Shown: piece by piece, positions 30,001 to 36,000 of the stretch
How positions within the stretch are numbered: the stretch's first letter is position 1
Layout: each line of letters begins with the position of its first letter
Made by a program: the position numbers
IMG/VR virus record: IMGVR_UViG_3300048549_001527
Strand: one strand, 5' to 3'
DNA length: 64,000 nucleotides
From: a virus
Taxonomy: Duplodnaviria > Caudoviricetes

Positions 30001-33000
30001 TCATATCTCGACTACGTCGTAGAAGAGTGGATGAAAGAAAACGAACTCGCCATCGAATCCGGTATTAAGGTCGATATGGCAGAATCGTTAATGGACGGCC
30101 TGAAGGATCTTTTCACTGAGCACAACATTGCAGTAGACGACGAAGTCGTTGATGTGGTTGCAGGACTTGAAGAGAAAGTTGGAGAAATGACCGACGATGC
30201 AAACAAACGTATTGATGAAAATCTTGCGCTTGCAAAAGAGATCTCGGCTCTGAAGGCTGAAAAAGTTTTTAACGAAATGACTGAAGGACTTACGCTAACA
30301 CAAGCCGAGCGTCTGAAAGTACTTTCCGAAAAGCTTGACTTCGAAAACGTTGATGAGTATACAGATAATCTAAATACTCTTAAAGAATCATTCTTTGCAG
30401 AATCCAAACCGGTGGTTGCAGAGGAAGCTCAAGACGACGAAGAAGAAATCTTGACTGAGGAAACAGTTGTTGCTAAACCAGCTTCTGAAGATCCGTCAAT
30501 CAATGCTCTTCTCGCAGCTTTTGCGAAGAAATAATTTGAAAACCTTAACTTTATAAATAATCCTAGACGAACAAACAATAAACAAGGAGATAGAAAGATA
30601 TGACTCAGTCAAACTATCAAGCGCTTGTAGAAAAGTGGGGCCCAGTTCTGGAGCACGACTCTTTTGCAAACATTAAAGATCAGCACCGTAAATCGGTCAC
30701 TGCAACTGTTCTAGAGAATACTCAAAAAGCTCTAGTATCTGAAGGTGATCTGAGTGCAAACATGACTTCGCTTTTGTCTGAAGCAACTCATGTAAACGAC
30801 GCAGGCACAGGTGGCTTCGGCGCAGACTCAACTGCTGCTGGTCCAACTGCAGGTTACGACCCAATCCTAATTTCATTGGTACGTCGTGCAATGCCAAACT
30901 TGATCGCATATGACATCGCTGGTGTTCAGCCGATGACTGGCCCAACAGGCTTGATCTTCGCAATGCGTTCAACACATACTACGCAAGCTGCGGCTAACGA
31001 AGTATTTTATAACGAAGCTGATACAGACTTCTCAGGTACAGGTACTCATGCACAAGCATTGGGTTCAGCCAACTCAACAGTTACTACAACTGGTACGGGC
31101 CTTGCTACTGCAGATGCTGAATCAGACGCCAACTTCAACGAAATGGCATTCTCAATCGAGAAGGTTTCCGTAACAGCGAAATCACGCCAGTTGAAAGCGG
31201 AATACACAGCTGAGCTTGCTCAGGATCTTAAAGCCGTACACGGTTTGGATGCTGAAACAGAATTGGCTAACATTCTGCAATCAGAAATCTTGGTTGAAAT
31301 CAACCGCGAATTGGTTCGTACTATTTACACAAACGCGGTACTCGGCGCAGCCGGTACAGCAACTCCAGGTACTTTTGATCTGGATGTTGATGCAAATGGT
31401 CGTTGGTCAGTTGAAAAATTCAAAGGCCTGATGTTCCAAATCGAGCAAGAAGCAAACGCAATTGCAAAAGGTACACGTCGTGGTAAAGGTAACATGGTTA
31501 TCTGTTCTTCCGATGTTGCATCCGCATTGCAAATGGCAGGTGTTCTTGATTATACTCCAGCATTGAACAGCAATGCACTTGACGTAGATGACACAGGCAA
31601 CACATTCGCCGGTGTTCTGAACGGTCGTTACAGAGTATACATCGATCCATATGCCGGAGCTAACTACATGGTTGTAGGTTATAAAGGTTCTTCATCTTTC
31701 GATGCAGGTATCTTCTATTGCCCATACGTACCGTTGCAGATGGTTCGCGCAGTTGGTGAAAACAGCTTCCAGCCAAAAATCGGATTTAAGACTCGCTACG
31801 GCATGGTCTCTAACCCGTTCTCAGCTGGCGCTTCACAAGGCAACGGCGCATTGACTGTAGACTCAAACGTTTACTACCGTCGTGTAACTGTAAGCAACTT
31901 GTTTTAATAACAAGAAGTAAGGTTAACTTACCACAAACTAATTGGGGAGCTTTTCAGCTCCCCTTTTTTATATCTTTTCAACAGAATTTACATTCCTAGA
32001 GCATCCATATACATTTCAGTCATTGCGTTTTCATTATCAATATCATCACGGTTACGTTTACGAATTGAGACAATTTTACGCATTACCTTTGGTTCATATC
32101 CGCTGCCTTTTGCTTCGGCATAAACTTCCTTGATAGAGTCCATGATATCTCTCTTTTCTTGTTCCAAACGCTCAATCCGCTCAATGAATGCGCGAAGTTC
32201 ATCTGCTGTTACTGTTGCTGTATCTTGTGCCATTAAATAATCTCCTGCTGTTGTAAATTTCAAATCACCCATATTATTACGATTAACAGCATCATAATCA
32301 GGGTAGCCTTTTTCAAAGACTGGGCTTTCCATTAAAGTTTTCCTTCTTCTCTCATTTGTTTACGGATTTTAGTTGCCGATATATCATGTATATCTTTACC
32401 AAGATCGTGCTCTGTAAAGGTATATCCAACACCACGGCCATAACTAATATCAACAATATTAGGTACTTCTAAAATCATATATTCAAATCCATTGTGATAT
32501 CCGTGTTCAGCTAAACCATTTTCGATATTCTCAACAACTTGGATCATACCAAACGGATTATCATCTTGAGCTGCAGTACGCCCAGCGCCTGCATCTCCTT
32601 CAAAATTAAATACGTCACGTATCATAATAAGGACTTGACCTGTTTCCGCGAGTGCGCATTTAAACAGTTCAGTGTGACCGTCATGCCAAGGTTGCCATCG
32701 GCCTAACATTTGTGTGGTTGGTTTTTTATAGTCAAATTGTGGTTTATCATACATTTCCGTGTAACCTTACGTGCCGCTCTACAGCATCAGCTAAAGTTTC
32801 ATCAGTGTTATCAAACCATTTAGTCACATGATAATCTGCTTGAGTTGGTTTTTGAAACATCTTGTTTGTATCTCCAAATCGCCCTTCTTTAATAGTATCC
32901 ATCCATACTGTATAGTCAGCATCAAAGATTTCACGAGTTTCTTCAAGTGGACAGACAAAATCGCAAATAACAGTTCGTTTCATTTCTTTTTCGTAATCGG

Positions 33001-36000
33001 CAATTCCTTTCATACGATAAGCTTGACGTAAACGCGCTGCTTCGCTGAATTCCCAATCGTTTGCCATTTCGCGGATTTTATCGGCATTAAACCAAGCGCA
33101 ATTCAAACGCTTTTGTAGTCTTTCTGCTAGCCAAGTTTTACCTGACCCAGGCAACCCAAAGATCAATATTTTCATTCATTGTCTCCTTCTGACATATCGA
33201 TGTTAGATATAGTAATAAGCAGCGCAGTAAATACAATAATTGAATAAAATGACATAAATCCAACCATAAAGAAATAGCCTGCTTTATAAAGATACGCAAG
33301 TGTAATTAAAGCTGAGCCTTGCACCAAAAGCTTTTCTCTCCATGTTGACTCTTCGTCAAACGCTAACTCAATGGTCCAATTGGGACTCAATATTAACGCT
33401 GAAATCTTTCCAAACTGATACATATTATAAAAAATTAATACAGCTCCTGGAATTAAAAAGTATTCGTTGCCGTGCGTATAAAAATATCCAGCGCCACCTA
33501 TGATGTGAGTTAATATAATTCCATAAAGATAAAGCATTTAATATATACCACCTGGGATAAAGTTCATATCAAGCCAAATTGCTACTAGACCTAGAAATAG
33601 CCCATAAAGGACTATTTCAACAGGTTTTAGATTTTTCATATGGTTATGAAATTTACGAAGCATTAGCCATCTCCAACGCAAGATCTAACGCATCAACTTT
33701 GCGCTTTGCGTTTGTTCCGAACCAAGCAGATGCCATACGTGTATCTGCAGAACGACCTAGTTCATGGTCAGCCATATAGGTAACTGCATTATACGCGTTC
33801 CACCAAGTGCCAGGGCGGAAGTTATCTCCTGGTTGGTTTTCAACAACTTCAACAGCACGTTCAGCTGTTCGCGACAAATCACGGTCTTCGCGAGTCGACT
33901 CTCCAAAGATCTTTGCCATAAACCGGTTAAGTACTTCTTTGTCATAGTTTTTAGAACCAAGAAACTCGGCGGCTTCTTTAAACTTTTCAACTTTGTTGTG
34001 AGATAAACCAAGAATTTCTTTAACACTTTCAGGATCAAACACTGAACGGTGATTTACACGCACAGATGGTTGGTTCTTTTCGTTAAGAGCTACAGCCAAT
34101 GTGTTATTGCATACAACACGTTCCATTACGAACTTGATGTCAATGCTTTTTCCGTAAACATGTGGATTAGAAAACAAAAGGTAGCCTTTAACGGCATCAC
34201 CACCGAAAAGCTCAAAGCCATCACGGACATCGGCAAGAGCCCAAACCAAACGGCCATCTTTCAACGAACCGGCTGTATCCATAGCCATATCTCCGTTTGA
34301 AACAAAGTCGTTAAAAAACTCAAATGCTTCAGAGTTTTGTACTGGGTTCCAACCAGTTCCAACTTGTGTAAGGATTTTTCCATCTGATGAACGGACCAAC
34401 GCTTGTTGACCAGTTTCTTTTTGCTCACCGTTGTAATTGATGAATGTGTTGACTTTTTCAACTGACCAGTCAAGGCCTGCTGCTTCCATCATTTGCTGCG
34501 GCGACATATCGTCACCAACAGGAACACCTAGTCCATGCCAAGGTAGACCTTGACTTTCACGGTACGCCATTTGAGCTTGACCGTTAATCATTTCCAATTC
34601 ATGTGCCATAGTATATTTTCCTTTTCATTTTGTATATAACTAGTATATACTGATTCCATTATAATGTCAACTGTTAATTAAGCTAATTCATAACCAAAGT
34701 AAGACTTAACAAACTCGTTATCACAGTCTTTAGCAAAAGCCAAAACCAATGCCTCACGAGGTGATGTATCCATAAATTGAACGTGGTTTGCAAGTGTTTC
34801 GGAATCTGATTGACGGAACAAGCTGATAGCTTTGTGAAAATCGTCAGCATCTTCGTTATACATATCAGAAAGATCGCCGCTATCTTTAGCATATTCACGA
34901 TACACGGCAACCAATTTAGCTACGTTTGTAAGAGGTGTTTCCGTCCAAAATTTTTGAGCTTGAGTTGTCATTGTCTGATTCCTTTTCATTTGTTATATTA
35001 ATAATATAACTGATTCTATATAGAATGTCAACAATAAAATGAAAATAAATTAAATTATTTTAGTGGATCGTTTCGTTATACATTGGCAAAGCGTCAACCA
35101 TGTCATGAGTATATTGAGTAAACCCAGATTTAATCAAATCCACTACATCAACATATTGACCGTCAGAATGTATTTCCGCAACTTTACATAGAGGATAGTC
35201 CTCAATTAAAAAGGCTTGCATATATTTAAATGCTTCTCTTTTTGTATCAAAAGAATATGCCCTGCTGATACCGAACATATCATTTTTTGAAAATATTCTC
35301 ATGATACTCAGTATACCATTTCCGCCAGGAGCGGGCATACGATGAGTACCAAGGAATACTCCCATTTCTTCGTCAATGATTACATATCTCAAGCTGGATA
35401 TCCTTGAAAACCTTGCCACCAATAAGGAGCTTCACGGCCTTTATTCCATACGGCAAAGTCTTTAGTCATATGATAGTATTTACGATATGCCGCGACTGGA
35501 TCGCCTGCAACTTTACACAATGGAAAGTTATTCATTGCTTGAGGAAATTCTGTCAAACCTACATCTGGTATATTTTCGGGTGGCTGAGCAAGTACTTCAG
35601 TCAACTTATTTGCAGTCATATGAAGCTTTTTGTATCTTACTAGAAACTCATCTACAAGCCCGAGAAAGTGCTCATAATGCCATAGATAATTGGCCTTTGA
35701 TTTCATAGACCAAATTGTGCATGGATGATGGTGGTGAACTGCTTTATATAAGGTATTTTCTAGGTTACTGTTAGGATGAACATAGTACTTAACCATAACC
35801 TTACCTGACTTTGAAGGACGTTTTTCCATGTAACCGTCAAGCATACGATGAGCCGTGGACAGCATTTGTCCAGACTCAATAATCATCTTACTGCAGTGTT
35901 TGTCGCAGACCATCTGAGCCGCTTCTCGCGGCTCTTCAGATAACACAAATATATTCATATAGCAAATCCTTTGTTTTGCAAGATACGAAGCGGAGCACCG

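Follow-up and report, generated by a model that had tools for sequence, protein, structure and literature searches.

A candidate minimal PAPS synthase with a NadM-like transferase in a T4-like marine phage

Results

An overlapping gene pair and its relatives

The stretch of DNA analysed here (the window; 64,000 nucleotides of IMG/VR record IMGVR_UViG_3300048549_001527) covers the genome of a T4-like marine phage only in part; the portal, prohead and capsid genes of this phage lie at 26-32 kb. Two overlapping genes on its minus strand encode a protein resembling the kinases of adenosine 5'-phosphosulfate (APS) and a small HxGH nucleotidyltransferase (Table 1; hereafter the kinase and the transferase), which we propose as a probable minimal synthase of 3'-phosphoadenosine 5'-phosphosulfate (PAPS). 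An original prediction, made from the sequence alone, had placed a P-loop kinase and a 140-aa transferase with HxGH and ISATxIR motifs at 32332-33175, and the existence of both open reading frames (ORFs) is confirmed. They overlap by 8 nt; the kinase ORF is preceded by AGGAG, has an intact P-loop and scores 30.2 bits against PF01583 (cut-off 21.1), and the transferase carries GRWQPWHDGH (residues 18-27) and ISATKIR (residues 125-131). Both also match a single fused phage family, PHROG_10255, with E-values of 9e-30 and 1e-19 to its N- and C-terminal parts, respectively. A prediction of the kinase-transferase complex (score 0.00) gave no verdict either way.

Searches found at least 7,999 transferase homologs of near-equal length and 2,064 longer ones, the latter, among the matches listed, being mostly fusions to PF01583. 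In 79 of 80 viral loci the kinase gene is either the next one upstream or separated by a single small gene, which in about 19 of them is DUF2061-like; the 80th locus ends at a contig end. Given these numbers, the pairing is not due to chance. Among cultured phages, the Sano/Salvo group and DLP6 have the fusion, and RSL1 and RsoM2USA the kinase alone. The transferase is found in 58 of 121 genomes of the SAR86 order; the family was not found in 350 sampled Bacteroidota genomes, save for one phage contig. L085, L086, L133, L324 and L325 are T4-like phage contigs binned into bacterial metagenome-assembled genomes (MAGs) and are not countable as bacterial occurrences.

Table 1. Coordinates of the gene pair and of other features in the window
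Feature	Coordinates	Strand	Evidence
Lid-truncated APS-kinase-like protein, 142 aa	32747..33175	-	PF01583 above cut-off, fold, conserved residues
Minimal HxGH nucleotidyltransferase, 140 aa, candidate new-type ATP sulfurylase	32332..32754	-	Motifs, profile, fold, context
Hydrophobic protein, 121 aa, upstream of kinase	33172..33537	-	No Pfam or PHROG match
GapR-like gene, downstream of transferase	31988..32332	-	PF10073 E 3e-31
GT17-like glycosyltransferase fused to degenerate Sulfotransfer_2-fold domain	50690..52258 (domain 50693-51304)	-	PF04724 E 2e-7

The kinase has an APS-kinase-like substrate site

In a structural search with the AlphaFold2 model of the kinase (pLDDT 92), the top four matches are APS kinases (Z 16.8, 16.7, 16.0 and 15.8), followed by gluconate kinase (15.7). 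When the protein is aligned to Mycobacterium tuberculosis CysC by way of the canonical CysC of P0249, its residues D32, R35, F43, R48 and F73-x-x-P76 correspond to D480, R483, F492, R497 and the I523-S524 backbone, which in the mycobacterial enzyme bind APS through its ribose, adenine and phosphosulfate (PMC4373884). Over 40 diverse sequences, these APS-site residues show either no variation or a conservation of at least 90%, and the P-loop is near-invariant. The protein falls short of a full member of the CysC family, with a TIGR00455 score of 20.6 against a cut-off of 138.7; it is nonetheless likely to be active.

The transferase is NadM-like but belongs to neither the Sat nor the NadM family

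The likeness of the GRxQPxHxGH motif to that of nicotinamide mononucleotide (NMN) adenylyltransferases (NMNAT), pointed out in the original prediction, is borne out by both profile and fold: the closest profile is that of NadM-type NMNAT (E 4e-11), and NadM (Z 10.4) precedes PPAT (9.8) and Sat (1v47; 8.2) among the fold matches. The invariant residues are G18, R19, Q21, P22, H24, G26, H27, G106, R107, S126 and R131, among which H24 and H27 form an HxxH motif on a nucleotidyltransferase fold, as in Sat. A possible counterpart of the GRD loop of Sat is the invariant G106-R107, with an Asp in only some members.

The transferase is a member of neither the Sat nor the NadM family. It scores 14.2 bits against PF01747 (Sat; cut-off 24.3), a profile search of the PDB returned no Sat entry, and the NadM models NF002243 (25.8 against 127) and TIGR01527 (20.8 against 181) stay far below their cut-offs. 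Its first half and its final ISxTxxR motif are common to four NadM-like proteins, whereas in place of about 45 central NadM residues, among them a conserved Asp...Trp segment, it has a short stretch containing the invariant G106-R107. We take the Trp of this segment to stack on the nicotinamide, although a literature search did not confirm it; its loss, together with the gain of an Arg, would fit a small anionic substrate.

These features bear on the other function considered in the original prediction, a split NadR-like module for NAD salvage. It would pair a ribosylnicotinamide kinase with an NMN adenylyltransferase and might act against NAD-depleting defences. The motifs, profile and fold of the transferase are indeed closest to NadM NMNAT, and a NADAR gene adjoins the fusion in phage Sano (L081 8157-8600, between a sulfotransferase-like gene and the fusion), but the loss of the central NadM residues argues against such a role, as does the kinase, which is far nearer to APS kinases than to the human nicotinamide riboside kinase NRK1 (Z 16.8 versus 10.7; the matches listed do not include the NadR kinase domain). 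Moreover, no NAD-salvage family occurs among the neighbour families listed (25 of 177), and the cys, apr and sulfotransferase contexts described below would be left unexplained. An NAD salvage module thus appears very improbable.

The pair probably fills a gap in sulfate assimilation operons

Two small alphaproteobacterial genomes carry the operon chelatase-cysG-cysI-cysH-DUF2061-kinase-transferase, with cysG, cysI and cysH above cut-offs, and ATP sulfurylase is the single enzyme missing from this cysG-cysI-cysH operon. Within the order of these genomes, the transferase is present in 8/8 genomes, CysD in 0/8 and Sat in 1/8, these absences, like those below, having been counted in incomplete MAGs and single-amplified genomes; cysH-DUF2061-kinase is visible upstream in seven of the eight; in the remaining one a contig end interrupts the locus. 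DUF2061 is itself found in Bacteroidota in operons with cysD and cysC, cysQ or cysH (3/6 genomes). No Sat was detected in the five SAR86 genomes tested.

It could also be that the transferase adenylylates another sulfur-linked anion or metabolite (e.g. sulfonate, phosphonate or selenate) and that the kinase phosphorylates this adenylate. HxGH enzymes are diverse, the sulfate motif of Sat is absent here, and gluconate kinases nearly equal APS kinases in the fold search; such a substrate would however explain neither the filling of the single gap in the cysG-cysI-cysH operon nor the fusion to a canonical CysC described below, and we give this possibility little weight.

Loci with aprA, cysQ and xsc

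The order that includes the HIMB59-labelled genomes provides a second context; the transferase of the phage is 65-68% identical to those of HIMB59-like genomes. The transferase is found in 20 of 80 genomes, aprA in 10 and Sat in 2. It is present in 9/10 aprA-positive versus 11/70 aprA-negative genomes (Fisher p 6e-6, uncorrected for kinship, a value that overstates the case because these genomes are related and incomplete), and only one of the ten aprA-positive genomes has Sat. The transferase lies about 2 kb from aprA in four genomes, and in several genomes the pair is divergent from an aprM-like gene, aprB and aprA, with cysQ beyond. By way of control, Sat is located within 1-3.5 kb of aprA in 4/5 aprA-positive alphaproteobacteria without the transferase. 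Elsewhere the transferase follows cysQ near xsc, both the CysQ and Xsc neighbours being above cut-off. aprA was not found in five SAR86 transferase carriers. The name aprM for the gene before aprB is a positional label only, hidden Markov models giving no match, and the label hpsN for a HisD-like neighbour was dropped, since hisD models alone match it. A conserved ORF of 116-122 aa without Pfam match directly follows aprA in HIMB59-like loci (L090 1880-2245, L143 1127-1474, L193 4177-4524).

A location beside aprBA, cysQ and xsc would also suit a module that consumes APS and does not supply PAPS: the transferase would catalyse the sulfurylase reaction backwards, making ATP and sulfate from APS and PPi, and the kinase, devoid of its lid, would be an inactive APS-binding or regulatory partner, or would join CysQ in an APS/PAPS cycle. 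The transferase does follow cysQ without a kinase in L118, L134 and L159, and the deletion of the kinase lid points the same way. Such a module is nonetheless unlikely, as the P-loop and APS site are near-invariant over the 40 diverse kinases, sulfotransferases are repeatedly adjacent (see below), and the lone kinase of RSL1 resides in a cluster of glycosyltransferase and sulfotransferase genes, which is sensible only if PAPS is made.

Fusions and sulfotransferase neighbours

The transferase is fused to a canonical CysC with a full lid, at the N-terminus in P0249 (TIGR00455 234 bits) and at the C-terminus in haloarchaea, where a sulfotransferase gene is immediately upstream; fused forms also occur in surface-glycan clusters. 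Sulfotransferase genes directly adjoin the transferase in L141, L167 and 11/25 SAR86 loci, alphaproteobacteria also being among the groups with sulfotransferase neighbours, and Sulfotransfer_3 is the joint most frequent family among 140 neighbour clusters. In phages, PF03567 is above cut-off in DLP6, RSL1 and the sole complete marine relative (221 kb, three genes). All 11 Sano/Salvo-type records have a weak sulfotransferase-like gene (PF17784 E 4e-4) two genes upstream; it is nearly confined to these records, whereas another neighbour occurs in 76 records, and since they form one clade this adjacency amounts to one event.

Several arrangements deserve mention in their own right. The haloarchaeal megaplasmid cassette L338-L340, composed of a sulfotransferase, the CysC-transferase fusion and a YqcI/YcgG protein, suggests a pathway for a sulfated small molecule. 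A pyruvate-kinase-like gene and a weak sulfotransferase lie 2-3 genes upstream of the fusion in the glycan cluster of L177 (4294-6327). In RsoM2USA, an ORF two genes past the lone kinase (L083 6875-7426; no Pfam match) has by eye a sulfotransferase-like start. Finally, the RSL1 kinase (L084 5989-6684) has on its C-terminal side an unnamed domain of about 70 aa that by eye resembles one on the N-terminal side of the transferase in P0153; this domain is a possible third partner of the module.

The sulfotransferase-like domain and other genes of the window

A sulfotransferase-like domain had been predicted at 50690-51300. It is weakly confirmed: the domain has no Pfam match even at E 10, and neither pairwise BLAST against the sulfotransferase of RSL1 nor a profile search of the PDB gave a match, but a 65% homolog matches PF03567 at E 0.0025, below cut-off (homologs 11-18 bits against 22), and its ESM feature score is 0.96 against clusters in which PF03567 is present at 20%. 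From the last two results it is probably of sulfotransferase fold. Motif-like stretches are present and the Ser is kept, but in 11/11 aligned homologs the Lys of the 5'-PSB motif is changed to Arg and the Arg of the 3'-PB motif to Thr or Ser, and it is somewhat doubtful that the domain uses PAPS. All 19 homologs keep the fusion to the GT17-like glycosyltransferase, and a CxCxWC motif marks the point where the two parts meet.

The window also contains epimerase, UDP-sugar dehydrogenase, PMM and glycosyltransferase genes, and thus glycans would be the most likely sulfate acceptor. A TagD-like HxGH cytidylyltransferase (47477-47884, minus strand), of a family distinct from the 140-aa transferase, lies beside a UDP-sugar dehydrogenase gene. 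A late insert (12957-16016, plus strand) encodes a weak GH130-like propeller, an ORF that by eye combines TPR and methyltransferase-like parts, and a cytidylyltransferase-cupin fusion; no sulfotransferase match was found in these three ORFs. A DUF454 gene and a PLP enzyme resembling 5-aminolevulinate synthase (53899-55562, minus strand) are located beside ribonucleotide reductase.

Next to the pair, the 121-aa hydrophobic protein, which is not DUF2061, overlaps the start of the kinase by 4 nt, and 49 related loci also have it near the pair. The GapR-like gene is translationally coupled to the transferase, its start overlapping the transferase stop in TAATG; the function of this gene is probably unrelated to the pair, and its presence hints at an alphaproteobacterial host.

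Discussion

Based on the sequence, fold and gene-context evidence presented here, we consider it probable that the gene pair makes up a minimal PAPS synthase whose ATP sulfurylase is of a new type, derived from NadM. The 140-aa transferase would have lost the nicotinamide-riboside pocket and would convert ATP and sulfate into APS and PPi, and the kinase would then phosphorylate the 3'-OH of APS to yield PAPS. The ATP sulfurylase step is known to be unfavourable, and the kinase step would pull it forward. The phage's own sulfotransferases would use the PAPS, most likely on glycans produced by its glycosylation genes; the flux presumably runs in this direction in the phage.

Several observations weigh against this proposal. 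The transferase resembles NadM rather than Sat, and in place of the QxRN sulfate motif of Sat it reads GRWQ (G, R and Q invariant); being NadM-like in both sequence and fold, it would have to be a new kind of sulfurylase. In the kinase, 19 residues of the lid are deleted, including the equivalents of Arg559 and Lys562, and Asn replaces the first Asp of LDGD; as M. tuberculosis CysC cannot work without closing its lid (PMC4373884), activity cannot be taken as given. Sat or CysD is present together with the transferase in four genomes, and the genomes behind the absence counts are incomplete. In T4-like phages, the immediate neighbours of the pair are not sulfur genes, and the only sulfotransferase-like domain of the window has altered PAPS-binding positions. 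The gene neighbourhoods of bacteria, archaea and phages give good support to the PAPS synthase envisaged in the original prediction, but not in the form of a Sat-family transferase with a complete APS kinase, and the sulfated glycan named there is a presumed end product.

While the PAPS pathway is textbook knowledge and phage cysC has already been reported as an auxiliary gene (PMC8190135), a NadM-derived minimal sulfurylase family is undescribed in the literature that we searched, which was thin on subscription papers. A survey of phage sulfur genes found no sulfate adenylyltransferase (PMC8190135). On balance, we lean towards the view that the transferases of 117-140 aa constitute a third, convergent class of ATP sulfurylase derived from NMNAT, which would be widespread in marine phages, would supply the sulfate-activation step otherwise missing from streamlined ocean bacteria and from some haloarchaea, and would allow phages to sulfate their own or host glycans. 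To our knowledge, routine annotation uses only two ATP sulfurylase families (Sat and CysDN). With a third family, of one third that size and currently annotated as 'cytidyltransferase' or 'NMN adenylyltransferase', the sulfur pathways reconstructed for abundant marine bacteria such as SAR86 would change, and many phages would turn out to encode complete PAPS synthesis; a compact PAPS synthase could also be useful for enzymatic sulfation.

The module can be compared with four known systems. The kinase is like CysC (M. tuberculosis 4rfv, Aeropyrum pernix 2yvu) in fold, P-loop and the APS-binding Asp/Arg/Phe/Arg, but lacks the lid Arg and Lys and has Asn at the first Asp of LDGD. With NadM NMNAT (1f9a, 1ej2, 2qjt), the transferase has in common GRxQPxHxGH, the NPF loop and ISxTxxR, whereas a short PN-I..I.YGR.VGY segment, in which an Arg is invariant, stands in for the central Asp...Trp helix and the elements that follow, and the family is found in sulfur rather than NAD contexts. 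As in Sat-CysC fusions and PAPS synthases (human PAPSS1 1x6v, Aquifex 2gks; PF01747 + PF01583), an HxxH transferase is joined with an APS kinase by coupling or fusion, in both possible orders, and the family occupies operon positions of sat or cysDN; in contrast to these enzymes, the transferase has only 117-140 aa, without a PUA domain, QxRN or a significant Sat sequence match, and the kinase is shorter by the 19 lid residues. The fourth system is the PHROG_10255 'kinase' (Xylella phage Sano gp35, Salvo, DLP6 gp227), which has the same two domains in the same order at 35-49% identity; its members are fused, whereas the genes of the window are split, and it is annotated solely as a kinase.

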